In this document: in pieces, positions 1,358 to 54,248 of the stretch
Position numbering within the stretch: the first letter of the stretch is position 1
Layout of the letters: every line of letters starts with the position of its first letter
Assembly (NCBI GenBank): GCA_017452445.1
Contig: JAFTMH010000002.1
Span: 202,657 to 266,656, forward strand
DNA from: Clostridia bacterium
GTDB lineage: Bacteria > Bacillota > Clostridia > Christensenellales > UBA1242
Direction: 5' to 3'
DNA length: 64,000 nucleotides
The notes under the pieces: model-generated
Database searches by the model: none
What the model saw: only the letters and a program-made list of their open reading frames with translations
What the model was told of the DNA's origin: nothing
Program-made: the position numbers and the translations under genes

Positions 1358-3481
1358 ATGCAAGTAATCAAAAGAAATGGTTCGATTGTAGAATACGATC
1401 CAGCAAAAATCAAAATTGCCATCGAAAAGGCAAACAAAGAGGTTTTGGAAAAGGACAAGGCGACCAAAGAAGAAATTAAAGGGATTCTTGAATATATCGA
1501 AAATCTTAAAAAGAAAAGATTGCTGGTTGAAGATATTCAAGACATCATCGAAGAAAAGTTGATGGAATACGGTCACTATGATCTTGCGAAGAAATACATA
1601 ATTTATAGATATAATCGTGCTCTCATCAGAAAGTCAAACACAACAGACGAAACAATTTTGACTCTTGTTAAAAACGCAAACAAAGATGTTATGGAAGAAA
1701 ACTCAAACAAAAATGCTCTTGCTGCAAGCACTCAAAGAGACTTGATCGCAGGGGAAGTTTCTAGAGATTTGACAAGAAGATTGTTGCTTCCAGAAGAAGT
1801 TTCAAAAGCGCACGACGAAGGTATTTTGCACTTCCACGATGCAGATTATTTTGTTCAACCAATTTTCAACTGCTGTTTGATTGATATTGGAAACATGCTT
1901 GACAACGGCACAGTTATGAACGGAAAGTTGGTGGAATCGCCAAAAAGCTTCCAAGTAGCCTGCACAGTCACAACTCAAATTATTGCAGCTGTTGCAAGTT
2001 CGCAATATGGTGGCCAATCGGTTGACATCAGACACTTGGGCAAATATTTGAGAAGAAGCAAAGAAAAATTTGAAAAGAAACTCCGTGCTGTTGATCCAGA
2101 TATGGACGAAGCATCATTTAAAAAATATATTGATATGAGAGTGCAAGACGAATTGGCGTCAGGTATTCAAACAATTCAATATCAAATCAATACACTTATG
2201 ACAACAAACGGACAATCTCCATTTGTTACACTCTTCTTGTATTTGGATAAAAACGATCCATACTTGGAAGAAAACGCGATGATTATCGAAGAAATCTTCC
2301 GTCAAAGAATTCAAGGTATCAAAAATGAAAAAGGTGTTTATGTTACACCAGCGTTCCCAAAACTCGTTTATGTTTTGGACGACATCAACTGTCTTGAAGG
2401 TGGAAAATATGATTATGTAACAAAACTTGCATGTCAATGTTCTGCAAAGAGATTGTATCCTGACTATATTTCAGCAAAGAAAATGCGTGAAAATTATGAA
2501 GGAAATGTGTTTAGCCCTATGGGTTGCAGAAGTTTCTTGTCTCCTTGGAAAGATGAAAACGGAAATTATAAGTTTGAAGGCCGTTTCAACCAAGGCGTTG
2601 TAAGTATCAATCTTCCACAAATTGGTATCATCGCTGACGGCGACGAAGAAAAATTCTGGAAATTGCTTGATGAAAGACTTGAAATTTGCTTTAGAGCATT
2701 GATGGTTAGACATGAAGCACTTAAAGGAACAAAATCAGATGTTTCACCAATTCATTGGCAATATGGTGCGATTGCAAGATTTGAAAAAGGTCAAACAATT
2801 GACAACTTGCTTTATGGTGGCTATTCTTCAATTTCTTTGGGATATATTGGTTTGTATGAAGTTACAAAAGCAATGAAAGGTGTGTCACATACTGATCCTG
2901 TTGGCGAAGAATTTGCTATGAGAGTTATGAAACACTTGAGAGCAACAACAGACAGATGGAAAAAAGAAACAAATATTGGTTTTGCGTTGTATGGAACCCC
3001 TGCAGAATCATTGTGTTATAGATTTGCTCGCATTGACAAAGCTCGCTTTGGAACAATCGAAGACATTACAGACAAAGGTTATTACACAAACTCATACCAT
3101 GTTGATGTAAGAGAAAATATTGATGCGTTTGAAAAATTTAAATTTGAAGCGCAATTCCAACCAATTTCATCAGGTGGCTGCATTTCTTATGTAGAAATCC
3201 CAAATCTTACAAACAATGTTCAAGCGATTGAAGAAGTTGTTAAGTTTATTTACAACAACATTCAATATGCCGAATTTAACACAAAGAGCGACTATTGCCA
3301 TTGTTGTGGATATGATGGAGAAATTATCATCAACGAAAACAACGAATGGGAATGTCCACAATGTCACAACAAAGATCAAAAGAAGATGAATGTTACAAGA
3401 AGAACTTGTGGTTATCTTGGAGAAAACTTCTGGAATGTTGGAAAAACAAAAGAAATTAAGTCAAGAGTATTGCACTTGTAA
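1358..3481 (+). CDS. nrdD: anaerobic ribonucleoside-triphosphate reductase (class III RNR)
   Basis: N-terminal ATP-cone (MQVIKRNGSIVEYDPAKIKIAIEKA), C-terminal Zn site CHCCG...CPQCH and the glycyl-radical motif RRTCGYLG. Start placed at ATG 1358 after GGGGAGG; the listed ORF begins at 1343. Confidence 0.95.
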   Translation: MQVIKRNGSIVEYDPAKIKIAIEKANKEVLEKDKATKEEIKGILEYIENLKKKRLLVEDIQDIIEEKLMEYGHYDLAKKYIIYRYNRALIRKSNTTDETILTLVKNANKDVMEENSNKNALAASTQRDLIAGEVSRDLTRRLLLPEEVSKAHDEGILHFHDADYFVQPIFNCCLIDIGNMLDNGTVMNGKLVESPKSFQVACTVTTQIIAAVASSQYGGQSVDIRHLGKYLRRSKEKFEKKLRAVDPDMDEASFKKYIDMRVQDELASGIQTIQYQINTLMTTNGQSPFVTLFLYLDKNDPYLEENAMIIEEIFRQRIQGIKNEKGVYVTPAFPKLVYVLDDINCLEGGKYDYVTKLACQCSAKRLYPDYISAKKMRENYEGNVFSPMGCRSFLSPWKDENGNYKFEGRFNQGVVSINLPQIGIIADGDEEKFWKLLDERLEICFRALMVRHEALKGTKSDVSPIHWQYGAIARFEKGQTIDNLLYGGYSSISLGYIGLYEVTKAMKGVSHTDPVGEEFAMRVMKHLRATTDRWKKETNIGFALYGTPAESLCYRFARIDKARFGTIEDITDKGYYTNSYHVDVRENIDAFEKFKFEAQFQPISSGGCISYVEIPNLTNNVQAIEEVVKFIYNNIQYAEFNTKSDYCHCCGYDGEIIINENNEWECPQCHNKDQKKMNVTRRTCGYLGENFWNVGKTKEIKSRVLHL

Positions 3482-6121: not shown

Positions 6122-9100
6122 ATGGATAGAATGAAGCGCAGATTTATATTGGGAATTATGGCGAGCTTATGCTTGCTTGTTTCTGTGTTTGGTTTGGGAA
6201 TAGGATTGGCAAATGTGTCGGTCGGTGTTTCTTCGTCAATTTCACAGGAAGTTGAAAATGAAGATAATGCGATTGAAACGGGATCGGAGGAGATTGTTGA
6301 AGATTTGCCAATAGGTGCTAATGCTACAAAAGCTACATATACTTCTGCTGTGGGTAATGTTTCTGGATCCGTCACATATGATATGTGCAAATTTACATGT
6401 TCATCTGGCCCAATTGTTACATTGACTTCCGGAGTTGTTGTGTTTAAGAATTGCGAATTCTGGCTTGGGGGAAATATAACAATTGTTTCGCCTTCTTCTG
6501 GAACAAAAGTTTACTTCTACAATTGTATTTTCTATAGCACTTCGTCAACAACAGATCGCTCAATAGCTTTGTCTACATCAACTTCTACTGCTATTGTTCA
6601 AGACTGCTTGGGTGTTGGTGTAAGTTTTTCGGGTGTAAATGCTGCTCAAAGTAAATGCTATTATTCAAATAGCTGGAATGACGGTATGGCCATCGTTAAA
6701 GATGCTTCCAAATTTTTGACTTCAGGGGACGGACTTTGGACTGGAGCTTGGGATCTTGATGCAGCTTGGGCATATCGTGGATATAAAACAATGTCTAGTG
6801 GTACAGACACAGGTGTGGTTGTTGCTGAATTGGTTTTGATTCATTCAATCAACTCAACGGCGACAAAGTTGTTGAACCTTTATTCAAAAAACCCATACAA
6901 CGGCCAGGTATATCACATTATTTATGATGCATCTACCGCAGGCTCGATTTCAAAAACATCTATCGGATTTTCGTGGCCAGGTTACACCTTGTCAGGTTGG
7001 GCTTATGACTACAACGGAACTGGTTATGGCGAAAGCATTGCCGTTTCTGGGCCAGGGGATTTTTATGCTGTATGGAAAGCGAACGATATTACGGTAACTC
7101 TTAGTCCGGGATCTACATATTCGTCTGCTGGAACGGGATATATCTATTACACATTTGGAACTGCAACCTACTACAGCAATTCAACCCACACATCAACCAT
7201 TTCGACAATCACTTGTCCAACAAGAACTGGTTATACATTTAAAGGGTATTACACTGCATCTGGTGGTTCTGGAACAAAGTATATCGCCAACAATGGAGCA
7301 ATTGATAGTGGGCTTTCTGGTGATAATAGATTGGCGAGAAAGCAAACTGCAAATTTGACATTGCATGCATATTGGACTGCAAACTCATATACAGTTACGG
7401 CAAATGCTAACAGTGGAACTATTTCTTCTACATCAGGTTGGTCTGGAACTGGAAATACTGCAACAAAAAGCATTGCTTATGATTCTACCTATGCATCTTT
7501 CCCAAATGTGGCAAGAACTGGTTATACGCTTAAGGGCTGGTATACTGCATCAAGTGGTGGAACAAAAATAGAAACTTCAACAAAGATGACCACTACTAGT
7601 GCGCACACAATTTATGCACAATGGACAATAAATAATTATACATTGACTGCGATAAGTGAGTTGGGTGGATCTAAATTGACACCAAAAACAGGTTGGACTT
7701 CAAATGGTGATCAACAATGTTCTAAGGCTGTTGCATATGGCACACAATATTTCAACGATTTGCCTACAGCAACAAGAGCGGGATACACATTCAGAGAATG
7801 GACTTCTGATTCTGCTGGAAAAAATGCCGTTGTTACTACTGTAAAGATGGGGGCTGCAAATGCAACAGTTTATGCTCAATACACAGCTCACACATACAAG
7901 ATCAATCTTGTACAAAACAACTCTGCCTCTGATACGACATCGGTTTCGAATTTTAATGTAACTTACAATTCGGTCGTTTCAGTGCCTTCGGGGACAAAAA
8001 CGACAGCGACTAGAGTCGGATATGAGTTTCAAGGTTTCTATTCTGCAAGAAGTGGCGGGGTGTGGATAATTGGAAAAGATGGAAAATTTAAGGCTTCAGC
8101 ATCTGGATATACAGACGCAAATACTAAATGGATCAATGCTCAAACTACAAATGGTGCGACCATAAACCTTTATGCACAATGGACTGCTTATTCTTACACT
8201 ATTAGGTTTGACAAGAATGCTGGTTCTGGCACTATGGGCGATATGAGTGTCAAGTATGATCAGACAGTGACATTGTCTGCAAATGCGTTTACACGCACGG
8301 GATATTCATTTTTGGGATGGGCATTGACTTCTGGTGGAGAAAAAAAATACAACGATAAAGCGTCAGTTGTCAATTTAACATCTGTAAAAGATGCAACAGT
8401 GACACTTTATGCTTGCTGGACTGCTATTCAATATACTGTTACATTAAGTGCAAATGGCGGCAGTATAGCGCAAGGAGATGGTTGGATAGGCAGTGGAACT
8501 ACGGCGACAAAAAAAGTTTATTATGATTCGAATTATGGGACATTACCTGATAAGGCTCAAATGTTAAGAACGGGATATACTTTCAGCAGTTGGAGTACCG
8601 CAACAAGTGGCGGAAATGCAGTTACTGCAACAACACTAATGAAGGTTGCTGCAGATCACACTATTTATGCTTTGTGGACACCAAACAAAACGACCGTTAC
8701 GCTTTACAAAAATGATAAAGCTGTTTCAGGTGGTGGTGGCACCGTAACAACTCTTACATATACATATGATTCGACTTCAAGGTCGCCTTCAACTTTTACA
8801 AAACCAACAAAAACAGGACACACATTGACTGGTTATTACACTGCTGAGTCTGGTGGTACAAGGGTGCTTGATGCCGAAGGTGTTTTGCTTGCAAGTGTAA
8901 CAAACTTTTCAAATGCATCAAAGGCATGGCAAAGTACAAAATCAACCGTTTCTCTTTATGCACAATGGACACCAAACCCATATTCAGTAAAATTTAATGC
9001 AAACGGTGGATCTGGTGGTTCGACAGTTGCTTATGTGAAGTATGGTGTTGGTTGGTATAAAGAGCAAGCCTGCACAAATGCGTTTACTCTCTCAAAACCA

Positions 9101-45834: not shown

Positions 45835-46674
45835 ATGAAAAAAGAAATCGTTTCCTTGGTTTTTTCGGTTGACAACAACAGTTTGCCATTTTTTGGCGTA
45901 ACGCTTAAAAGCATTTCGTCAACTTGTGATAAGAAAAGAATTTATGATATTTATGTTTTGCACGCAGGGCTTGATGTGCAAAAACAAAAGAGAGCAAAAC
46001 AGGATTTGCCACTCAACTTCAATCTTCAATTTGTTGATGTTTCAGAACAATTAAAAAAAGAAGAATGTGCCATTTTGAAAAATTATGGTCAAACAAAAAC
46101 AAACTTCTTCAAAATTTTTGCTGCACAAATGTTTGAAAATTTGGACAAGGTGTTGTATTTAGACTCAGACCTTGTTGTGTTGGAAGATATCAGCAAACTT
46201 TTTGACACAAACATCAAAGACAAGCTTGTGGGAGCTGTTATGGACTTGTCTGTTGAAAACAGCCGCAAGGACACAGAAGAAATTGCAAAAGCATACGACA
46301 TTGATGCTTCAAGATATTTCAACACTGGTGTTTTGTTGATGAACCTTAAACAAATGAGAAAGACAAAGTTTCAACAAAAATATCTCAAGACCTTGCAAGA
46401 TTTGGATTCGGTCATTTCGCCAGAACAAGATTGCTTTAATGTTGTGTGCAAATATCAAGTGAGCTATATTGATTTTTATTGGAATGTTATGCCGATTGAA
46501 GATGTTTGTCCAGATGACGAAGTCAAACTTATCAATTACAGCAATTTGTGGAAGCCTTGGATTTGTGAAAAAACAAAATACAGCAAACAATTTTGGGATG
46601 CTGCTTTTGGCAGTCAATATTATGAAGATGTGCTCAACATCAAATTGAAATATACAAACAATTTTGTATGTTAA
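45835..46674 (+). CDS. glycosyltransferase family 8
   Basis: GT8 signatures: YLDSDLVVLEDI (DxD) and FNTGVLLMNLKQMR. RBS is AAGGAGG. Confidence 0.8.
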   Translation: MKKEIVSLVFSVDNNSLPFFGVTLKSISSTCDKKRIYDIYVLHAGLDVQKQKRAKQDLPLNFNLQFVDVSEQLKKEECAILKNYGQTKTNFFKIFAAQMFENLDKVLYLDSDLVVLEDISKLFDTNIKDKLVGAVMDLSVENSRKDTEEIAKAYDIDASRYFNTGVLLMNLKQMRKTKFQQKYLKTLQDLDSVISPEQDCFNVVCKYQVSYIDFYWNVMPIEDVCPDDEVKLINYSNLWKPWICEKTKYSKQFWDAAFGSQYYEDVLNIKLKYTNNFVC

Positions 46675-46693
46675 AAACAATAATAAAAAAGAA

Positions 46694-46719
46694 AAGTGGA
46701 CAAAATATCCACTTTTTTT
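46694..46719. terminator. bidirectional terminator (GT8 gene / gatB)
   Basis: Stem AAGTGGA (46694-46700) / TCCACTT (46708-46714), an A-run before and a T-run after. It lies between convergent stops at 46674 and 46747. Confidence 0.7.
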
Positions 46720-46746
46720 GTTGTTTTTGAAAAATTTGATCGAATA

Positions 46747-48162
46747 TTAACCAAAAAGTTTTGCAATCAATGACTTAACTAATTCGCCATTTGCTTTGCC
46801 GGCTGTGTTTTTCATAACATAACCAACAATAAAACCGATAACTCTTTGAGGTTCTTTTTTGTAATCTTCAACAGCTTTTGGGTTGCTGTCTTTGAATGCT
46901 TGCAAAAGTGTTGTGATTTGTTCTTCTGAAATTGTTGTCAAAAGACCAAGTTCTTTTGCAAGAGTCATAGGATCTTTTCCTGTTTGAGCAACTTGGTCAA
47001 GAAGTTGAAGACCAACAGTTTTGTTGATTTTCTTTTCGTCAACCATCTTGATGATTTCTGCAAGTGGTTGTTCGGCAATAGGAAATTCAAATACTTCTTC
47101 TTCCTTTACGAGTTTGAGAAGGTCTGTCAAAATCCAGTTGCTGATTTTCTTTGGTGCATCATAAAATGAAACGCATTTTTTAAAATAGTCAGAAATATAT
47201 TTGCTTGAAGTCAAAATTCCAGCATCATAAGCAGGCAAGCCAAACTTTGTTTGATACATTTCTCTTCTTTCAACAGGAAGCATTGGCATTTCGCCTTTGA
47301 TGCGAAGCACATCTGCCAAATCAACTTCGATTGGCAAAATGTCTGGATCTGGGAAGTAACGATAGTCTTGTGCTTGTTCTTTTGATCTCATTGCAGTGTT
47401 TTTGCCTTTGTCATCGCTCCACTTTCTTGTTTCTTGAATGACTCTTTCGCCGCTGCCCAAAACTTCTGCTTGTCTTTTGATTTCGTATTCGATTGCTCTT
47501 GTTACACTCTTGAAAGAGTTGAGGTTTTTCATTTCAGTTCTTGTTCCAAACACTGGCGAACCTTTTGGTTTAAGTGACAAGTTGACATCGCATCTCATTC
47601 CACCTTCTTCCATTTTACATTCGGCAACATTTGCAAAAACAAGTGCTTCTCTAACTTTCTTCAAAAAGTCGTCAACTTCTTCTGCTGTTTCAAAGTCAGG
47701 TTCGGTTACGATTTCAATAAGAGGTGTTCCACCACGGTTGTAGTCAACCAAAGTGCCAACACTTTTGCTGATGTGTGTAAGTTTTCCCGCATCTTCTTCC
47801 AAATGGATTCTGTTGAGGCGAACTTCTTTGCCACTGTCAAGTTTTACAGAACCACCTTCGCAAAGAGGGTGAACCATTTGGCTGATTTGATATGCCTTTG
47901 AAAGGTCAGGGTAGAAATAGTTTTTTCTTTCCATCACTGCATAATCTGCAATCTTGCAACCAAAGCAAAGACCTGCTTTGATGCAAAGTTCGACTGCTTT
48001 TCTGTTGATTATAGGAAGTGCTCCTGGCATGCCTGTGCAAACAGGGCAAGTGTTTTTGTTTGGGTCAGCGCCAAATTCGTTTTTGCAACTGCAAAAAATC
48101 TTTGTGTTGGTGTTGAGTTCGGCATGGACTTCAAGTCCAATAACTACATCAAATGCAGACAT
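46747..48162 (-). CDS. gatB: Asp-tRNA(Asn)/Glu-tRNA(Gln) amidotransferase subunit B
   Basis: VIGLEVHAELNTNTKIFC and PGALPIxN are typical GatB motifs, and a C-terminal YqeY-like tail is present. It is the last gene of the aspS-gatCAB string. Confidence 0.95.
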   Translation of the reverse strand: MSAFDVVIGLEVHAELNTNTKIFCSCKNEFGADPNKNTCPVCTGMPGALPIINRKAVELCIKAGLCFGCKIADYAVMERKNYFYPDLSKAYQISQMVHPLCEGGSVKLDSGKEVRLNRIHLEEDAGKLTHISKSVGTLVDYNRGGTPLIEIVTEPDFETAEEVDDFLKKVREALVFANVAECKMEEGGMRCDVNLSLKPKGSPVFGTRTEMKNLNSFKSVTRAIEYEIKRQAEVLGSGERVIQETRKWSDDKGKNTAMRSKEQAQDYRYFPDPDILPIEVDLADVLRIKGEMPMLPVERREMYQTKFGLPAYDAGILTSSKYISDYFKKCVSFYDAPKKISNWILTDLLKLVKEEEVFEFPIAEQPLAEIIKMVDEKKINKTVGLQLLDQVAQTGKDPMTLAKELGLLTTISEEQITTLLQAFKDSNPKAVEDYKKEPQRVIGFIVGYVMKNTAGKANGELVKSLIAKLFG

Positions 48163-48164
48163 GT

Positions 48165-49571
48165 TTAGGCCTCCTTAATCTTTTTTGCGACATCATACAA
48201 AAGATGTTCGCTGTGTTTTTTTCCAATCACTTGAAGGCCAAGTGGCAATCCGTTTTCTGCTGTCGCATAAGGTATGCTTATTGCAGGCACACCGGCAATG
48301 CTTGCAGGTACGGTAAACAAATCTTCCAAATACATTGAGATTGGATCGTTTGCCTTTTCTCCAAGTTTGAATGCTGTGTAAGGTGTTGTAGGTGTGATGA
48401 TTGCATCACAATCAGCAAAAGCATCATCAAATTCTTGACCAAGCCAAGTTTGAAGTTTTCGAGCCTTGTTGTAGTAAGCATCAAAGTATCCACTTGAAAG
48501 CACGAAGTTTCCAAGGATAATTCTTCTTTTTACTTCTTTGCCAAAGCCTTCGCTTCTGCTTTTGATGTAAACATCTTCCAAAGTTTTTGCATCTGTTGCT
48601 CTTGTTGTGTATTTAACTCCATCAAAACGAGCAAGGTTTGAAGTTGCTTCAGCAGGAGTAAGCACATAATAGCAAGGCAAGCAACTTTCGATATGTGGGA
48701 CATCAACTTCTACAAATTCAAAACCTTTTTGTTTAAGTTTTTCAACTGCTTTTTCAAAATAGGTTGAAGAAGCAGATTGTTTGATTGACTGAGCAAGCTG
48801 TTTGCAAAGACCAAGTTTGTAAGTTGGTTTTGTTTCTGCTCTTTTCAATTCAATTGAAGTTTGGTCATTTTCATCTTTTCCGGCCATAATGTCGAAAACA
48901 TATTCGTTGTCTTCAACAGTTTTTGTGATTGGGCCTGCTTGGTCTGTCGAACTTGCAAAAGCCACAAGACCAAATCTTGAGATTGCACCATAAGTTGGTT
49001 TGATGCCAACCACACCGTTAAACGAACTTGGTTGTCTTACCGAACCACCTGTGTCAGTGCCGATTGCGATTGGTGCAAGGTCAGCAGCCACAGCCACAGC
49101 ACTTCCACCACTGCTTCCGCCAGAAACACAAGTTGGATCAATGGCATTTTTGCAAGGGCCATAAGCACTGTTTTCGCAACTTCCACCCATTGCAAACTCG
49201 TCCATATTTGCACGGGCGATAATGATTGCACCTTCTGCTTCAAGTTTTTTGACGATTGTTGCAGAGTATGGTGAAACGAAATCTTGCATAAACTTGCTTG
49301 CACAAGTCATCTTTTTGCCTTTGTTGAGAATGTTGTCTTTCACAATGATTGGCACTCCGGCAAGTTTGCCAAGTGTTTGTCCTTGAGCAATTTTGCTGTC
49401 AACTTCTTTTGCCTTTTCGATTGCATCATAAAAGATTTCCAAAACGGCATTGAGATCTTTTTTCTTTTCGCATTGAGAAATGTAAAAAGAAACAACATCT
49501 TCGCTTGTAAATTTTTGTGTTTTAATTCCTTCGACCAATTCTTTTACGGTCAATTGTGTAAAATCTGTCAT
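48165..49571 (-). CDS. gatA: Asp-tRNA(Asn)/Glu-tRNA(Gln) amidotransferase subunit A
   Basis: Amidase signature GGSSGGSAVAVAA...GTDTGGSVRQPS. The start overlaps the gatC stop (TAATG). Confidence 0.95.
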   Translation of the reverse strand: MTDFTQLTVKELVEGIKTQKFTSEDVVSFYISQCEKKKDLNAVLEIFYDAIEKAKEVDSKIAQGQTLGKLAGVPIIVKDNILNKGKKMTCASKFMQDFVSPYSATIVKKLEAEGAIIIARANMDEFAMGGSCENSAYGPCKNAIDPTCVSGGSSGGSAVAVAADLAPIAIGTDTGGSVRQPSSFNGVVGIKPTYGAISRFGLVAFASSTDQAGPITKTVEDNEYVFDIMAGKDENDQTSIELKRAETKPTYKLGLCKQLAQSIKQSASSTYFEKAVEKLKQKGFEFVEVDVPHIESCLPCYYVLTPAEATSNLARFDGVKYTTRATDAKTLEDVYIKSRSEGFGKEVKRRIILGNFVLSSGYFDAYYNKARKLQTWLGQEFDDAFADCDAIITPTTPYTAFKLGEKANDPISMYLEDLFTVPASIAGVPAISIPYATAENGLPLGLQVIGKKHSEHLLYDVAKKIKEA

Positions 49572-49849
49572 TATTCCACCACCATTGGAGTTACATAGCA
49601 GCCATCTTTTTTCTTAGGTGCATTTGCAACAACATCACATTCTTCTTTTTCAACAACTTCATCTTCACGAAGTTGCGACAAGCAAACTGCTTTCGACCTG
49701 TCTTCAAGTTCTGGCAAATCAAGTTGAGTGATTTGATCAACAAACTTTACAATGTTTGCAAAATCTTTTGCAAACTTTTCTTTTTCAGCATCATCAATTT
49801 TAAGTTTGCTTAATGCTTCCAAATATTCGATATCAAATTTTTCGTCCAT
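49571..49849 (-). CDS. gatC: Asp-tRNA(Asn)/Glu-tRNA(Gln) amidotransferase subunit C
   Basis: 92 aa with the GatC pattern (LSKLKIDDAEKEKFAKDFANIVKFVDQI...REDE). It sits between aspS and gatA. Confidence 0.9.
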   Translation of the reverse strand: MDEKFDIEYLEALSKLKIDDAEKEKFAKDFANIVKFVDQITQLDLPELEDRSKAVCLSQLREDEVVEKEECDVVANAPKKKDGCYVTPMVVE

Positions 49850-49859
49850 TTTTTACTCC

Positions 49860-51161
49860 TTAAGGTTTCAATCTGCTTGGTCCACGGAAGAGGAAGATGC
49901 TGTCTTTAAGTGATTGCAAATCCAAAAGTTTTGAAATAAATCTGTCAATTCCAAAACCAATTCCGCCGTGTGTAGGGCAACCGTATTTGAAGAATTCGAG
50001 ATAATCAGCCATTTTTGAACTGTCAATTCCGTGTTCTTCGATTTGTTGTTTGAGTTGTGTATATCTGTGTTCTCTGACAGCACCACTGTTCATTTCCCAA
50101 CCTCTATATAACATATCAAAACCCATACAGTCAAACGAATCGTCTGTGATTTTCTTTGAATAGAATGCTCTTGCTTCTGCTGGATAATCTGTGATAAACA
50201 CAAATTCGCTGTCAAGGTAATCTCTTGTATATTCGCAAATCAACTTTTCTGCTTCTGGGTCAAGGTCAAGTTGTTTTTCTTCTGGTGTTTCAATTCCGTA
50301 AACATCTCTAAAGATTTGGAAAACTTCTTTAAGTTTAAGTCTTGGGATCTTTGTTGGCACTTTGACTTCAACATCAAAAATCTCTTTGATTTGTGTGCCA
50401 TAAGTTTCTTTGATTTTTCTCATAACATAAAGCATCCAATCTTCTTCAACATCAATCACATCGTGATGAGATTTCACATGGGCGATTTCAAAGTCCAAAC
50501 AAACTGCTTCGGCAGTGTGTCTTGCTGTGAATGATTTTTCGGCTCTGTAATAAGGTCCAATTTCAAACACTTTGTCAAAACCACTTGCGATTGCCATTTG
50601 TTTGTAGAATTGTGGACTTTGTGTCAAATATGCTTTTTGTCCATAATAGTCAAGAGTGAAAACTTCTGCACCACCTTCAGAGCATTGAGAAGTGATTTTT
50701 GGTGTGTGGATTTCGATATAACCACGGTCAACAAAATATTCTCTCATCTTTGATTCTGCAAAAGTTCTGATTTGGAAAATTAATCTTTGTTTTTGTTGTC
50801 TAAGATCAATCCATCTAAAGTCCATTTTAAGTTCGCCAGCAGTTTGCTCGTCAATTGGCAAATCTTCAGCCAAACTTTCAACTTCGATGCCAGAAGGCAC
50901 GAGTTCGATTTGTCCCAATTTTACACAAGGTGCAGAAACGACTTTTCCCCAAATTGTCACAACACTGTGGCGAGAGATTTTGTCAAAATCTTCAGTTGCA
51001 AGTTCGGCGATTTTGTCTTTTTCAATTGCAACTTGAATGCTTCCTGTTGTGTCTGTCACAACGAGAAACATCATTGTTTTTTGTTCTCTAATTTTTTCGA
51101 TCCAACCTGAGATTTTGCAAATTTCATCAACTTGGACATCTTTAATATAAGTTCTTTTCAT
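49860..51161 (-). CDS. aspS: aspartate--tRNA ligase, archaeal/type-2 form, probably non-discriminating
   Basis: 433-aa class IIb synthetase with an OB-fold N-terminus, QSPQFYKQ, YRAEKSFTARH, GIGFGIDR and the C-terminus FRGPSRLKP. It sits 10 nt upstream of gatCAB. AsnRS cannot be fully excluded by eye. Confidence 0.75.
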   Translation of the reverse strand: MKRTYIKDVQVDEICKISGWIEKIREQKTMMFLVVTDTTGSIQVAIEKDKIAELATEDFDKISRHSVVTIWGKVVSAPCVKLGQIELVPSGIEVESLAEDLPIDEQTAGELKMDFRWIDLRQQKQRLIFQIRTFAESKMREYFVDRGYIEIHTPKITSQCSEGGAEVFTLDYYGQKAYLTQSPQFYKQMAIASGFDKVFEIGPYYRAEKSFTARHTAEAVCLDFEIAHVKSHHDVIDVEEDWMLYVMRKIKETYGTQIKEIFDVEVKVPTKIPRLKLKEVFQIFRDVYGIETPEEKQLDLDPEAEKLICEYTRDYLDSEFVFITDYPAEARAFYSKKITDDSFDCMGFDMLYRGWEMNSGAVREHRYTQLKQQIEEHGIDSSKMADYLEFFKYGCPTHGGIGFGIDRFISKLLDLQSLKDSIFLFRGPSRLKP

Positions 51162-51319
51162 TTTATTATCTTCCTTTTTAATTTAATTTGATTTTTTTGT
51201 TTGGTTTTGCGGAAACCAACACCGTCCTAAAATTTTATATCTTCACTGCCCTTTGGGGCATTATTAAATTTGTGATAGAAGTTTGTTTTCATTGTTTTCT
51301 CCAATTTTTCTTTATTTAA

Positions 51320-51353
51320 CAAAAAAGAGCAGATGTGGGTTCCATCTGCTCTT
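51320..51353 (-). terminator. intrinsic terminator of the aspS leader (attenuator)
   Basis: Minus strand: AAGAGCAGATG / CATCTGCTCTT (11-bp stem), loop GAACCCA, then TTTTTTG. It is located between the leader ORF and aspS. Confidence 0.75.
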
Positions 51354-51379
51354 AGTTTAATTTTTATTTTCCGTTTTGA

Positions 51380-51466
51380 TTAAACGGCATAACAAAAGGA
51401 ACCCATTAAGTTTAATGTGTTGAAATTGTTATTATTGTTATTAACCAAAACAAACAATTTAGACAT
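51380..51466 (-). CDS. Asn-rich leader peptide (28 codons) of aspS-gatCAB
   Basis: AAGGAG (51480-51475) lies 8 nt before ATG 51466. The peptide is MSKLFVLVNNNNNNFNTLNLMGSFCYAV, with stop TAA 51382-51380. Six consecutive Asn codons occupy 51442-51425. Confidence 0.65.
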   Translation of the reverse strand: MSKLFVLVNNNNNNFNTLNLMGSFCYAV

Positions 51467-51500
51467 AAGTCTGGCTCCTTAAATTTATATTTACGATGTT

Positions 51501-51529
51501 ATTATACCACTGTTGACAATTTATGTCAA
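51501..51529 (-). promoter_or_regulatory. consensus sigma-A promoter of the aspS-gatCAB leader
   Basis: Minus strand: TTGACA (51529-51524), exact 17-nt spacer, TATAAT (51506-51501). Confidence 0.75.
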
Positions 51530-51648
51530 CACTTTTTTTGCTTTTCCGTTTTGAAAAACGATGCTCGTGTGCTATATATAATATATATTATAAGTGAAAC
51601 ATTTTCATCTATCACTGTCAAATTTTTCACAAAAACAAAGGAGAAAAA

Positions 51649-53103
51649 ATGAAAGAGTTTGGTGTTTTGTGTCATATTACTTGCTTGCCATCAAAAACGG
51701 GGCTTGGAGATTTTGGAAAAGTAAGTTTTGAATTTTTAGATTTTTTGAAATCTCAAAAGCTTTCTTTATGGCAAATTTTGCCACTCAACAATGCCAACGA
51801 ATTTAATTGCCCTTATGGACCACTCAGCACTCAAGCAATTGACGAAATGTTTGTTGATTTGGACGATTTGAAAGATAGGGGACTTCTTGAAGAGAAAGAA
51901 TACAAACATCTTTACAAATTCAAAAACACAAAAAAGGTTAAGTATGCAAAGATAAGACCAGAAAAAGAAAGGTTGTTTGCTGTTGCATATTCAAGATTGG
52001 ACGAAAAGAGCAAAAAGAAACTTTTGACTGTCGCGAAAGTAAATAAACATTTTTACGAATATGCTTACTATCGCACAATGCTTAAAAAATTCAACCAAAA
52101 GAGTTGGAGATTTGTAGAAGATAAATATTGGGATATTTACGGCAAGGTTGGACAAAAGTTTGTTAAAGACAACAAAGACGAATTTTTGAAGTTTGTTTTC
52201 TTTCAACAAGTTTTGAGACAACAATGGCAAAAAGTGAAAGATTATGCAAATGGTCTTGGCATAAAAATTATGGGTGATGTGCCAATGTATTGCGACAAAG
52301 ATAGTGTTGATGTTTTTGCTGGCAAAGAGTGGTTTAAGTTGGACGACAACTGTATGCCAACTGTTACGGCAGGTTGCCCACCAGATGTGTTTTCTTCGGT
52401 GGGACAAGATTGGCAAACTTGCATTTATCAATGGGACAAAATGAAAAAAGACAACTTTTCGTATATGGTAGAAAGGTTGACTTCGCTTTTGGGCAAATAT
52501 GACTTGTTGAGACTGGATCATTTTCCTGGATATGTAAGATATTATGAGCATGCAAAAGCACCGGGCACAAAAACTCAATATGTTGATGGTGGTGGAGTTG
52601 CATTTTTCAAACAACTTCAAAAGACAGTTGATTTTAAGCAGTTGTTTGTTGAAGATTTGAGCGATGAAAACAGTGCGACGGGCAAAGTGATAAAACAATT
52701 TTCACTTAGAAGAATGAATGTTTTGCAGTATGGTTTTGACACTGACAACACAAATCCACATTTGCCACAAAATGTGATCGAAAACACTGTTTATTACACA
52801 GGCACTCACGACAGCGCAACATTTTTGGGTTGCTTGAAAAATCAAAATAAGCAACAGGTTGAAAAAATAAAAAAGATGATCGGTTCGCAAGCAAACAATC
52901 TTAAAGATTTGCAAATTGATTGCATCAATGCAATGCTTTCGTCAAAGGCTGAACTTGTTGTTTTGCAAGCACAAGATTTTATGATGCAAGATGAAAGATG
53001 GAGAATGAATTATCCGGGGGTTGCAGCAGGTTGTTGGGAATATCGTTTGTGCAAAAATTATCAAAAGAAGATGGCAAAGACAATTGAAAAGTTGAAATTT
53101 TAG
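51649..53103 (+). CDS. malQ: 4-alpha-glucanotransferase (amylomaltase, GH77)
   Basis: GH77 motifs: GVLCHITCLPSKTGLGDFG, the PLN...SPY-type segment, GIKIMGDVPMY and LRLDHFPGY. RBS is AAGGAGA. Confidence 0.85.
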   Translation: MKEFGVLCHITCLPSKTGLGDFGKVSFEFLDFLKSQKLSLWQILPLNNANEFNCPYGPLSTQAIDEMFVDLDDLKDRGLLEEKEYKHLYKFKNTKKVKYAKIRPEKERLFAVAYSRLDEKSKKKLLTVAKVNKHFYEYAYYRTMLKKFNQKSWRFVEDKYWDIYGKVGQKFVKDNKDEFLKFVFFQQVLRQQWQKVKDYANGLGIKIMGDVPMYCDKDSVDVFAGKEWFKLDDNCMPTVTAGCPPDVFSSVGQDWQTCIYQWDKMKKDNFSYMVERLTSLLGKYDLLRLDHFPGYVRYYEHAKAPGTKTQYVDGGGVAFFKQLQKTVDFKQLFVEDLSDENSATGKVIKQFSLRRMNVLQYGFDTDNTNPHLPQNVIENTVYYTGTHDSATFLGCLKNQNKQQVEKIKKMIGSQANNLKDLQIDCINAMLSSKAELVVLQAQDFMMQDERWRMNYPGVAAGCWEYRLCKNYQKKMAKTIEKLKF

Positions 53104-53113
53104 ACAAAGAAAA

Positions 53114-53139
53114 AGAAGGATGCGGGCCTTCTTTTTTTT
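53114..53139. terminator. bidirectional terminator (malQ / 53143 gene)
   Basis: Stem AGAAGG (53114-53119) / CCTTCT (53127-53132), loop ATGCGGG, T-run 53133-53139 and an A-run upstream. Confidence 0.7.
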
Positions 53140-53142
53140 GAT

Positions 53143-53547
53143 TTAGTTTATTTTTGAAAAATCGTTGCCTATTATTGTAGGGTTGAAACCAATAAGTTCG
53201 TCTTTGAGCATATTGTCAGGGATTGGGTTGACAAAGAAAATCTTTTTGTTCATTCTAAAAGCATCATAAATCTCTAAAAATGTTGCTCCACCAATATAGT
53301 TTTCTTGTCCGTTTTTGTTGAAGTTGAGCACCAAAACGGCATCAACATTTTTTATTGTTTCTTCCGATTGTCTATACATTTTTGCTTTGAAGATGTGGTG
53401 TTGTTCAGTGCCACGATATTTTGCCTCTGTCTCTGGAGCATCCCAGCAGTTTGGCATAAAAATTTTATGTCCCAAAGTTTCCAATTTCTGTTTGTATTCA
53501 GTCAAAGTTCCATAAAAGGCCTTGCTGCAGATTAAAAATATTTTCAT
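53143..53547 (-). CDS. nucleoside 2-deoxyribosyltransferase-like protein
   Basis: 134 aa with a Rossmann-like N-terminus (MKIFLICS). IGGATFLEIYDAF resembles the D/GxGTxxEhG motif of the NDT family. This is a weak call made by eye. Confidence 0.4.
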   Translation of the reverse strand: MKIFLICSKAFYGTLTEYKQKLETLGHKIFMPNCWDAPETEAKYRGTEQHHIFKAKMYRQSEETIKNVDAVLVLNFNKNGQENYIGGATFLEIYDAFRMNKKIFFVNPIPDNMLKDELIGFNPTIIGNDFSKIN

Positions 53548-53585
53548 TTTCTTCTCCCGATTGTGTGTTTTGATTTTTAGACAAA

Positions 53586-54248
53586 TTAAAGCAAATTTAA
53601 GTTTGCCAACTTTTTGTCGGTGTAATCCTTGATTGTAAGGGTTGTGATTGATTTGATTTTGTCTGCATTTTTCTTGTTGTATTTATGCACAATTCCACAA
53701 CTTTCGATGTTGAGAGAATGAGCACTTGTCAGTGATGCAAACGAATCTTCAAACAAGAAAATGTCACTTGCTTGGCATTTCAATTGTTTCAAACACTCTT
53801 CATAAAATTGCACACTTCTTTTTGGTTGAGCCAAACTTTCTTCAGTGTAGATATGATCGAAATGCATATCCAAACCATAATGTTTAAGAGCGATTTCCAA
53901 AAGGTATTTGCTGGTTGCAGAGACAAGCACGAGCGAATATCCCTTTGCTTTAAGATTGTTGAGCAATTCTCTTACACCTTTGATGAGTTTTATTTTGTGG
54001 GTGTAATAATATTCCATACGATTGTTCCAGAAATCAACAACTTCTTGTGCTTGCACATCTTGCAATTTTGTAAGGTCGATAAAAAGTTGTGCGATTTCGT
54101 GATTGCTTAAACCTTTTCGCAAAGTGAGAATATCTTTAACAAATTTTACATTCCAATATTTGAATGCTTCTTTGTGCATAACTTTATACCAAAGTGTGAG
54201 CGAGTCAACAAGAGTGTTGTCAAAATCAAAGAGAATGTATTTTTTCAT
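53586..54248 (-). CDS. HAD-superfamily hydrolase
   Basis: Motif I is ILFDFDNTLVDS, and downstream SATS and EDS motifs are typical of HAD-IA phosphatases. Confidence 0.8.
   Translation of the reverse strand: MKKYILFDFDNTLVDSLTLWYKVMHKEAFKYWNVKFVKDILTLRKGLSNHEIAQLFIDLTKLQDVQAQEVVDFWNNRMEYYYTHKIKLIKGVRELLNNLKAKGYSLVLVSATSKYLLEIALKHYGLDMHFDHIYTEESLAQPKRSVQFYEECLKQLKCQASDIFLFEDSFASLTSAHSLNIESCGIVHKYNKKNADKIKSITTLTIKDYTDKKLANLNLL

Follow-up and report, generated by a model that had tools for sequence, protein, structure and literature searches.

A probable leader-peptide attenuator with asparagine codons upstream of aspS-gatCAB in uncultured gut Clostridia

The 64,000-nucleotide stretch of DNA analysed here (the window, by which we always mean the whole 64-kb stretch) comes from a Clostridia bacterium (contig JAFTMH010000002.1) and carries on its minus strand an operon for the tRNA-dependent asparagine pathway, whose leader region is the subject of this study. 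The operon consists of aspS (49860-51161, 433 amino acids, Shine-Dalgarno (SD) sequence AAGGAAG at 51176-51170), gatC (49849-49571), gatA (49571-48165) and gatB (48162-46747), and a terminator scan located a terminator-like site for it at 46716-46692. All four proteins exceed the cut-offs of NCBIfam equivalog models, the aspartyl-tRNA synthetase (AspRS) matching NF003483, aspartate--tRNA(Asn) ligase, with 420 bits against a cut-off of 353, and the GatCAB subunits matching TIGR00135, TIGR00132 and NF004012. AspRS and GatCAB are thus encoded together, which bears out the reading of the operon as archaeal-type AspRS plus GatCAB given in a preliminary description of the same DNA, and membership in this family suggests that the AspRS is non-discriminating (ND). 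Upstream of the leader lies a 4-alpha-glucanotransferase gene in the opposite orientation.

The leader elements are likewise read on the minus strand. A sigma-70-type promoter (51501-51529) is made up of TTGACA (51529-51524), a 17-nt spacer with an extended TG (51509-51508) and TATAAT (51506-51501); it is the sole 12/12 match, and thus the best one, in a promoter scan of positions 46000 to 54000, and transcription would start near 51494. The SD sequence AAGGAG (51475-51480) follows, 8 nt before the ATG at 51466 of an open reading frame (ORF1, 51380-51466) of 28 codons and a stop, encoding MSKLFVLVNNNNNNFNTLNLMGSFCYAV. Eight of its residues are Asn, and six of these are consecutive (AAT AAC AAT AAT AAC AAT, 51425-51442); we propose that they are the regulatory codons. 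Promoter, SD, start codon, ORF length and Asn codons all agree with the preliminary description. A small predicted hairpin, P1 (CAUUA-AACU-UAAUG, 51404-51417), stands immediately 5' of a sequence that we call the box, GGGUUCCUUU (51404-51395), to which the leader SD with the following CC, AAGGAGCC (51480-51473), is complementary. The box and the adjoining UUGUU form the 5' strand of an antiterminator (51391-51405), equivalent to 'segment 2' of the trp attenuator. A second predicted hairpin, P2 (CCGUUU-AAUCA-AAACGG, 51371-51387), encloses the ORF1 stop codon UAA (51382-51380); in relatives, another hairpin takes its position and likewise contains the stop codon. The leader ends in an intrinsic terminator (51321-51353), also as previously described, with an 11-bp stem of AAGAGCAGAUG (51353-51343) paired with CAUCUGCUCUU (51335-51325), a GAACCCA loop, a U run to 51321 and a free energy (dG) of -17.2 kcal/mol. 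Its left arm and loop (51350-51336) double as the 3' strand of the antiterminator.

This arrangement exceeds what chance would give, since the Asn run is the only run of at least five AAY codons on either strand of the window, Asn makes up only 4.2% of the codons of the neighbouring genes, and the fold of the 186-nt leader has a z-score of -6.7 against dinucleotide shuffles. We consider it very probable that the leader is a ribosome-mediated (leader-peptide) transcription attenuator that senses Asn-tRNA(Asn) and controls read-through into the aspS(ND)-gatCAB operon. A perfect 8+8 inverted repeat, TGTTGACA-taaat-TGTCAACA (51531-51511), overlaps the -35 element of the promoter; a role of this TGTTGACA-N5-TGTCAACA palindrome as an operator was considered and dropped, the palindrome not being conserved in the closest relative (L001, 98% AspRS identity).

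A search with the AspRS, taking one genome per species, gave 80 aspS loci (referred to by L numbers). The closest, L001, is recorded as Candidatus Caccovivens sp., and the next 14, up to L015, come from metagenome-assembled genomes (MAGs) of uncultured gut Clostridia with 52-73% AspRS identity (62-73% if L014 is set aside). The gene order aspS-gatCAB is kept in relatives, and at each of these 15 loci the leader elements sit 120-290 nt upstream of aspS, with promoter hexamers resembling TTGAC(A/T)...TAnAAT at the equivalent position. Pattern scans of genomes and metagenomes added further members with the box (L114, L162, L190/L219, L194, L211/L221, L212, L214 and L215). The loose pattern applied to genome contigs returned mostly chance matches in unrelated phyla, and of the 22 matches to a stricter pattern in metagenomes ~7 were real, the remainder being chance. 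In all ~20 homologous leaders, a promoter and an SD precede an in-frame start codon, ATG or GTG (GTG in L013); 4-10 codons for variable and mostly hydrophobic residues lead up to a run of 4-9 Asn codons, after which come the box and a strong hairpin with a U run. The N-terminal part of ORF1 varies freely in sequence and length, while the frame and the SD are never lost and the spacing from SD to start codon is 5-9 nt in every lineage. The alternation of AAU and AAC within the run differs between lineages. The preliminary description had asked whether an Asn-run mini-ORF and a terminator occur together in relatives and had taken a lack of conservation as fatal to its proposal; they do occur together, in ~20 homologous leaders and four non-homologous ones, and the mini-ORF and its Asn run are clearly conserved.

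Several leaders have Asp codons beside or within the run (NNNNNNDDN, NNNNNDDN, DNNNNDN and D-NNNNNN), and the same is seen in distant leader types (NNNDNNNNN and NDNDNNNDD). Such codons would fit an operon whose first enzyme charges tRNA(Asp) as well as tRNA(Asn), and we propose that the attenuators of some relatives may sense Asp-tRNA(Asp) too.

Fifteen of the 16 aligned leaders have an identical box, the exception being L006, which reads GGGUUCU with one C-to-U change. In most leaders it is read as Met-Gly-Ser-Phe; in L009-L012 the stop codon comes 2 nt before it, and in L015 it lies in another frame. As its sequence is unchanged in all of these, the box is an RNA element rather than a conserved piece of peptide. 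A terminator hairpin with a U run is present in all 21 family members examined (dG -11.8 to -20.3 kcal/mol), built from at least eight different stem sequences. For pair counts we used a MAFFT alignment of seven lineages, in which 94% of the cells of P1 and the terminator are paired, against 29-58% in slid controls, and 9 of the 17 pairs change on both sides; none of 500 shuffles reaches the observed values on four of five measures (the exception is the measure of further pair types). The terminator stem covaries, with 6 of its 12 pairs changing on both sides. P1 is paired in 97% of cells and 3 of its 5 pairs changed on both sides, all of these changes coming from the L009 lineage. RNAalifold on plain MAFFT alignments returned no pairs in the antiterminator region and 8 in the terminator, a result that is uninformative because the arm sequences are too divergent to align; folding of each sequence and the pair counts above were used instead.

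The distribution of the leader follows that of gatCAB. Enough flanking DNA was available to judge its presence at 65 of the 80 loci, and an Asn-run leader ORF was found at 17 of the 18 aspS loci directly followed by gatCAB and at none of the 47 without adjacent gatCAB (Fisher's exact test, 1e-14, a value to be read with only four or five lineages being independent). Low-GC genomes often contain runs rich in AAT and AAC as well as A/T-rich hairpins, and the loose scan had many chance matches in other phyla; a mere coincidence in AT-rich intergenic DNA nevertheless has a negligible probability here, given an Asn run without parallel in the window, an arrangement kept as a whole over ~20 leaders, a covarying terminator and the 47 control loci without such an ORF. 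The comparative data effectively refute it.

Four of the 17 leaders (L043, L060, L062 and L079, at 45-47% AspRS identity) are unrelated in sequence to the type with the box. Their mini-ORFs, MILFINNNDNNNNNTI, MTFIQINNNNNNLLNT, MILVNDNDNNNDDTI and MTTLFCVINNNNNNNTATRLV, contain runs of Asn or of Asn and Asp, and each has its own terminator as well as a competing helix, either overlapping with the stop codon or immediately following it. These leaders may be of independent origin or very diverged. At L211, a homologous leader with the box (minus strand, 6656-6757) precedes an aspS of the bacterial type, encoding a 577-aa enzyme with 26% identity to the archaeal-type enzyme of the window, followed by gatCAB with 55-69% identity. 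L219 has the same leader as L211 and its downstream ORF has a near-identical N-terminus; the leaders of L190, L219 and L221 are near-identical to that of L211. On this comparison, the type of aspS gene appears to have been exchanged while the leader was kept, so that the leader stays with the pathway and not with one gene lineage.

The sole aspS-gatCAB locus without an Asn-run leader is L077, where a promoter-like sequence leads almost straight into aspS (at 3001) and gatC begins ~340 nt past the end of aspS. Another arrangement is seen in five MAGs of Bacilli (L034, L041, L044, L049 and L071), in which, ~1.3-4.3 kb into the locus, a gene for a class-IIb synthetase paralogue (28-30% identity to AspRS, possibly an AsnRS) comes after an archaeal-type aspS, with a GatA-like amidase ~1 kb further on. 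These five loci have neither gatCAB nor an Asn leader.

The same distribution bears on whether the unit might be a free-standing small gene, producing the 28-aa peptide or a ~175-nt small RNA, with aspS transcribed from another promoter and the link to asparagine a coincidence. The unit does have a perfect promoter and an efficient terminator of its own, 160 nt and another SD-led ORF separate that terminator from aspS, and in other bacteria terminated attenuator RNAs and leader peptides can act in trans, reportedly for instance rnTrpL and peTrpL (PMC7968998). We find this explanation very improbable, since the C-terminal part of ORF1 is not conserved as a peptide, no comparable promoter lies between the terminator and aspS, and the element always stands directly upstream of aspS-gatCAB, never at aspS loci without gatCAB, and remains with the operon where the type of aspS was swapped. 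A role in trans would in any case add to an attenuator function and not replace it.

An attenuator would need a second structure that excludes the terminator. In the window, UGGGUUCC (51405-51398) pairs with GGAACCCA (51343-51336), and UUUGUU (51396-51391) pairs with AGCAGA (51350-51345), with P2 enclosed. The preliminary description had proposed pairing with the left arm and loop of the terminator, and this holds; the helix is slightly longer than it had supposed. We folded the RNA that would be free behind a ribosome on the last Asn codon of the run, before the right arm of the terminator is made. For nearly every lineage the minimum free energy (MFE) structure of this RNA is a long interrupted helix, in which the box and ~20 nt 3' of it pair with the left arm of the terminator, its loop and ~10 nt upstream. 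Duplex energies of the antiterminator have z-scores of -2.5 to -5.2 against dinucleotide shuffles in 14 of 16 leaders. In most lineages the two conformers are of similar energy, -14 to -23 kcal/mol for the antiterminator and -13 to -21 kcal/mol for the terminator, and for several leaders the RNA exposed by the stall even has the antiterminator as its global minimum. In the register of L004, 80% of cells are paired, compared with 35-68% when the strands are slid. The register depends on the loop, and would not be consistent by column in a covariance model.

The 5' strand of the antiterminator has a further partner, which goes beyond what had been described before. The box resembles an anti-SD, and it can pair with the SD region of its own leader (AAGGAGCC, AAAGGAAC, AAAGGGAC and similar sequences), with the pairing extending one or two positions beyond the SD core on its 3' side. 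The MFE fold of the window leader pairs AAGGAGCC with GGUUCCUU, and SD:box duplexes are better than those of shuffles in most lineages (z-scores of -1.3 to -4.3). In other lineages, UUGUUGUUG 3' of the box pairs with the AAYAAY run. When no ribosome is present, this '1:2' pairing together with the terminator is predicted for every leader, a state like that of the trp attenuator.

The geometry of the leader is compatible with control by a translating ribosome, on assumed footprint sizes. The box starts 14-26 nt after the Asn run and would therefore not be covered by a ribosome stalled on the run. In leaders with a long ORF, that of the window included, the stop codon is inside the 5' strand of the antiterminator; in those with a short ORF it comes 2 nt before the box. 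A terminating ribosome would therefore mask this strand, in keeping with how the trp and his attenuators work.

From these features we propose the following course of events. After transcription has started near 51494, a ribosome would begin translation of the 28-codon leader from its strong SD and its AUG. With plentiful Asn-tRNA(Asn), it would pass the Asn codons and reach the stop codon, covering the box and the sequence that follows (segment 2), so that the terminator (segments 3:4) could form and transcription would end near 51321. When Asn-tRNA(Asn) is scarce, the ribosome would stall in the Asn run, at least 20 nt upstream of the box; segment 2 would be left free and, once the left arm and loop of the terminator had been transcribed, would pair with them and exclude the terminator. 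RNA polymerase could then proceed into the ORF that follows (ORF2), aspS and gatCAB. In the absence of translation, segment 2 would pair with the leader SD or the Asn run (the '1:2' state) and the terminator would form, making off the default. In this scheme, the positions of the ribosome, the kinetic order of folding, the occupancy of the SD during the stall and the response to tRNA charging are what we infer from the sequences. All features of an attenuator that can be tested at this level appear to be in place, namely an SD-led ORF, cognate tandem codons, a terminator, an antiterminator that shares a strand with it and a suitable geometry, save compensatory covariation in the antiterminator.

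This missing covariation is one of several observations that weigh against the proposed mechanism. Only 1 of 22 antiterminator pairs changed on both sides, and shuffles do as well; variation in this helix is almost wholly one-sided (G-C to G-U, U-A to U-G). A comparison of cognate with non-cognate partners across 9 lineages gave a trend (p = 0.064). In L011 and L012 the antiterminator is weaker and its pairing is shifted to another register, extending into the right arm of the terminator. The antiterminator therefore rests on conserved complementarity and energetics and not on compensatory covariation. Furthermore, masking the leader up to the stall, with the right arm of the terminator not yet made, yields the antiterminator in nearly every lineage, as the preliminary description would have it, but masking a single ribosome on the Asn run does not: the equilibrium fold is still SD:box plus terminator. 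For the model to hold, folding would have to be under kinetic control during transcription, or else the SD would have to be occupied during the stall by a second ribosome, initiating or queued, or by a 30S subunit. The UUGUUG stretch 3' of the box is a possible pairing partner for the AAY repeats as well, and synonymous AAU/AAC variation alone is therefore no proof of selection on codons. Finally, asnS, asnA, asnB and a second gatCAB are all absent from the 64-kb window, the part of the genome that was covered.

Some of these points could also be explained by a factor acting in trans, be it an RNA-binding protein, AspRS or GatCAB, or an uncharged tRNA, that binds the box GGGUUCCUUU and sets the balance between terminator and antiterminator, with the mini-ORF not being the sensor. 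The box is indeed stricter than pairing requires, 10 nt being invariant across lineages with 52-73% AspRS identity, the antiterminator is almost devoid of compensatory changes, and the AAY repeats could be kept for their pairing with UUGUUG. Such a factor would, however, leave it unexplained that no lineage has lost the SD at 5-9 nt, the in-frame start codon or the uninterrupted Asn run, although N-termini and lengths differ, and that the four leaders without the box retain an Asn-run ORF and a terminator. The invariance of the box has another explanation, in that it must pair both with the terminator and with an SD that is itself constrained by 16S rRNA, and the leader matches neither the T-box nor any other Rfam family. 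We therefore regard a trans-acting factor as unlikely and favour attenuation by the ribosome that translates ORF1.

A second conserved mini-ORF, absent from the preliminary description, lies between the terminator and aspS. In the window, ORF2 (51227-51292, minus strand; SD GGAG at 51302-51299) encodes MKTNFYHKFNNAPKGSEDIKF and contains a GC hairpin (U-GCCC-CAAA-GGGC-A, 51247-51260) that adjoins two Asn codons, AAT AAT (51265-51260). An SD-led, in-frame ORF2 of 14-45 codons is present in all 19 members of the box type with enough downstream DNA, that is, in the window and L001-L015 (16 leaders) and in L211, L214 and L219. The motif AAY-GCC-N6-GGC/GGG is always in frame, giving Asn-Ala-x-x-Gly and forming the GC hairpin, sometimes with further Asn or Asp codons before or after the AAY codon. 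Its Ala codon is always GCC, although the genes nearby use GCC for only 13% of their Ala residues. The two codons in the middle are free to vary, and the purine that follows GGGC pairs with the Y of AAY. Three units of Asn codon and hairpin occur within the single ORF2 of L015, and in L214 and L219 the stop codon comes one codon past the hairpin. The motif was not found at 63 other aspS loci, which include the four distant leader types (L043, L060, L062 and L079), and ORF2 thus co-occurs strictly with the leader of the box type. This pattern indicates that the hairpin and its reading frame are both under selection.

What ORF2 might do was approached through several candidates. Sequestration of the aspS ribosome-binding site was rejected as a general mechanism, the duplexes being no better than those of shuffles in 15 of 16 lineages. 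A Rho-dependent terminator after ORF2 was rejected as well: in the spacer, A makes up 50%, T 32%, C 7.5% and G 10%, and C is not in excess over G. Candidates for a second intrinsic terminator after ORF2 are weak and confined to L009, L010 and L015, and so not general. The best alternative partner of the 3' arm of the hairpin is the right arm of the terminator, probably an effect of composition.

One might imagine the leader as a two-stage sensor of Asn, in which the Asn-run attenuator is followed by a ribosome stall in ORF2 that acts after transcription, on the stability or translation of the aspS-gatCAB mRNA. A ribosome stalled on the Asn or Asp codons of ORF2 (one to three, abutting the hairpin), with such a codon in its A site, would hold the GC hairpin open, and cleavage in the A site or ribosome rescue might then yield a downstream RNA that starts right at the hairpin. 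We offer this as a speculation that is rather doubtful at present. The analogue we have in mind, for ORF2 only, is translational attenuation of the ermC or cat type, where a stalled leader ribosome remodels a hairpin or stabilises the mRNA. Like these, ORF2 is short and SD-led and has Asn or Asp codons, as candidate sites of a stall, adjoining a hairpin on its 5' side; unlike them, it shows no partner for a freed 3' arm and the aspS ribosome-binding site is not sequestered. If it were true, this 'hungry codon next to a hairpin' would make a kind of regulatory module for which no counterpart has been described.

Leader-peptide attenuators are well known in Proteobacteria, as trpL, hisL, leuL, thrL and ilvL, and the pheM leader of Escherichia coli pheST, which encodes PheRS, illustrates that an operon for an aminoacyl-tRNA synthetase can be under this type of control. 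Among classical systems, pheM/pheST is the closest to the Asn leader. The proteobacterial attenuators share with it an SD-led mini-ORF, cognate tandem codons, mutually exclusive antiterminator and terminator and an untranslated '1:2' state that terminates. The Asn leader differs from them in its Asn (with or without Asp) codons and its uncultured clostridial host, has no sequence homology to them, and has a segment 2 that mimics an anti-SD and can sequester the leader's own SD. Its target is also different, a two-enzyme pathway of tRNA-dependent amidation and not a biosynthetic operon or a single synthetase.

Within the Clostridia, a tRNA(Asn)-dependent T-box riboswitch reportedly lies upstream of the aspS-gatCAB operon of Clostridium acetobutylicum. 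The two systems have in common an operon for ND-AspRS and GatCAB, the bacterial class, the charging of tRNA(Asn) as signal and a terminator/antiterminator output. In a T-box, uncharged tRNA is itself the ligand, contacted by a specifier codon and by the T-box sequence, whereas in the Asn leader a translating ribosome would read the Asn codons. A T-box (RF00230) was sought in the window and rejected: none matched at the gathering score, and none at E-values up to 10 within 51000-51800. The same method does detect T-boxes, as among 20 other aspS loci scanned it returned one, 1.3 kb upstream at L016. More generally, no family of Rfam 15, with its curated leader models such as those for His, Leu, Thr and Trp, reached its gathering score anywhere in the window; the best match to the leader below threshold was Phe_leader (RF01859), with 23.3 bits against a gathering score of 55 and E = 0.22.

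Attenuators of the same mechanism occur alongside T-boxes in other Firmicutes, with His leaders predicted in the Bacillus cereus group, Peptostreptococcaceae and Erysipelotrichales (PMC9413887) and ribosome-mediated attenuation of ilv reported in Listeria (PMC5864092). The His leaders were found by a comparative logic like ours, from a short ORF with 3-5 tandem cognate codons, a terminator and an antiterminator (PMC9413887). These leaders sense His or Ile/Leu/Val and control biosynthetic operons, and none concerns Asn or tRNA-dependent amidation. In the literature that we searched, no leader-peptide or attenuation element is described for asparagine, Asn codons, gatCAB, aspS or asparaginyl-tRNA, and the remark in the preliminary description that no such attenuator was known for this operon agrees with this and with the lack of an Rfam match. 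By both sources, the Asn leader would be the first leader-peptide attenuator that reads Asn codons and the first on the tRNA-dependent route to Asn-tRNA(Asn). Its novelty lies in its specificity (Asn with or without Asp), its target pathway and its host group, and it belongs to no curated family.

The task that the T-box performs in C. acetobutylicum would then have been solved a second way within the Clostridia, with the ribosome as the sensor, offering a natural comparison of two sensors for one signal. This solution probably arose more than once, as several leaders of unrelated sequence share the design. The leader also suggests that, in these gut bacteria, this copy of gatCAB serves the Asn pathway specifically and not that of Gln. 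On a practical matter, the unit is a compact part of ~175 nt and a candidate for asparagine-responsive expression.

Elsewhere in the window, two hairpins that resemble terminators, flanked by runs of T and A and scoring on both strands, lie at 46689-46719, where gatB and a glycosyltransferase-like gene converge, and at 53107-53139, after the 4-alpha-glucanotransferase gene. Positions 6065-39367 of the plus strand form one uninterrupted ORF of 11,100 codons (33 kb), which has Listeria-Bacteroides repeat domains (PF09479, PF18998) in its first and last 2000 residues. Its product looks like a giant surface protein, and the ORF coincides with the block of higher GC content (38-42%) in the window.

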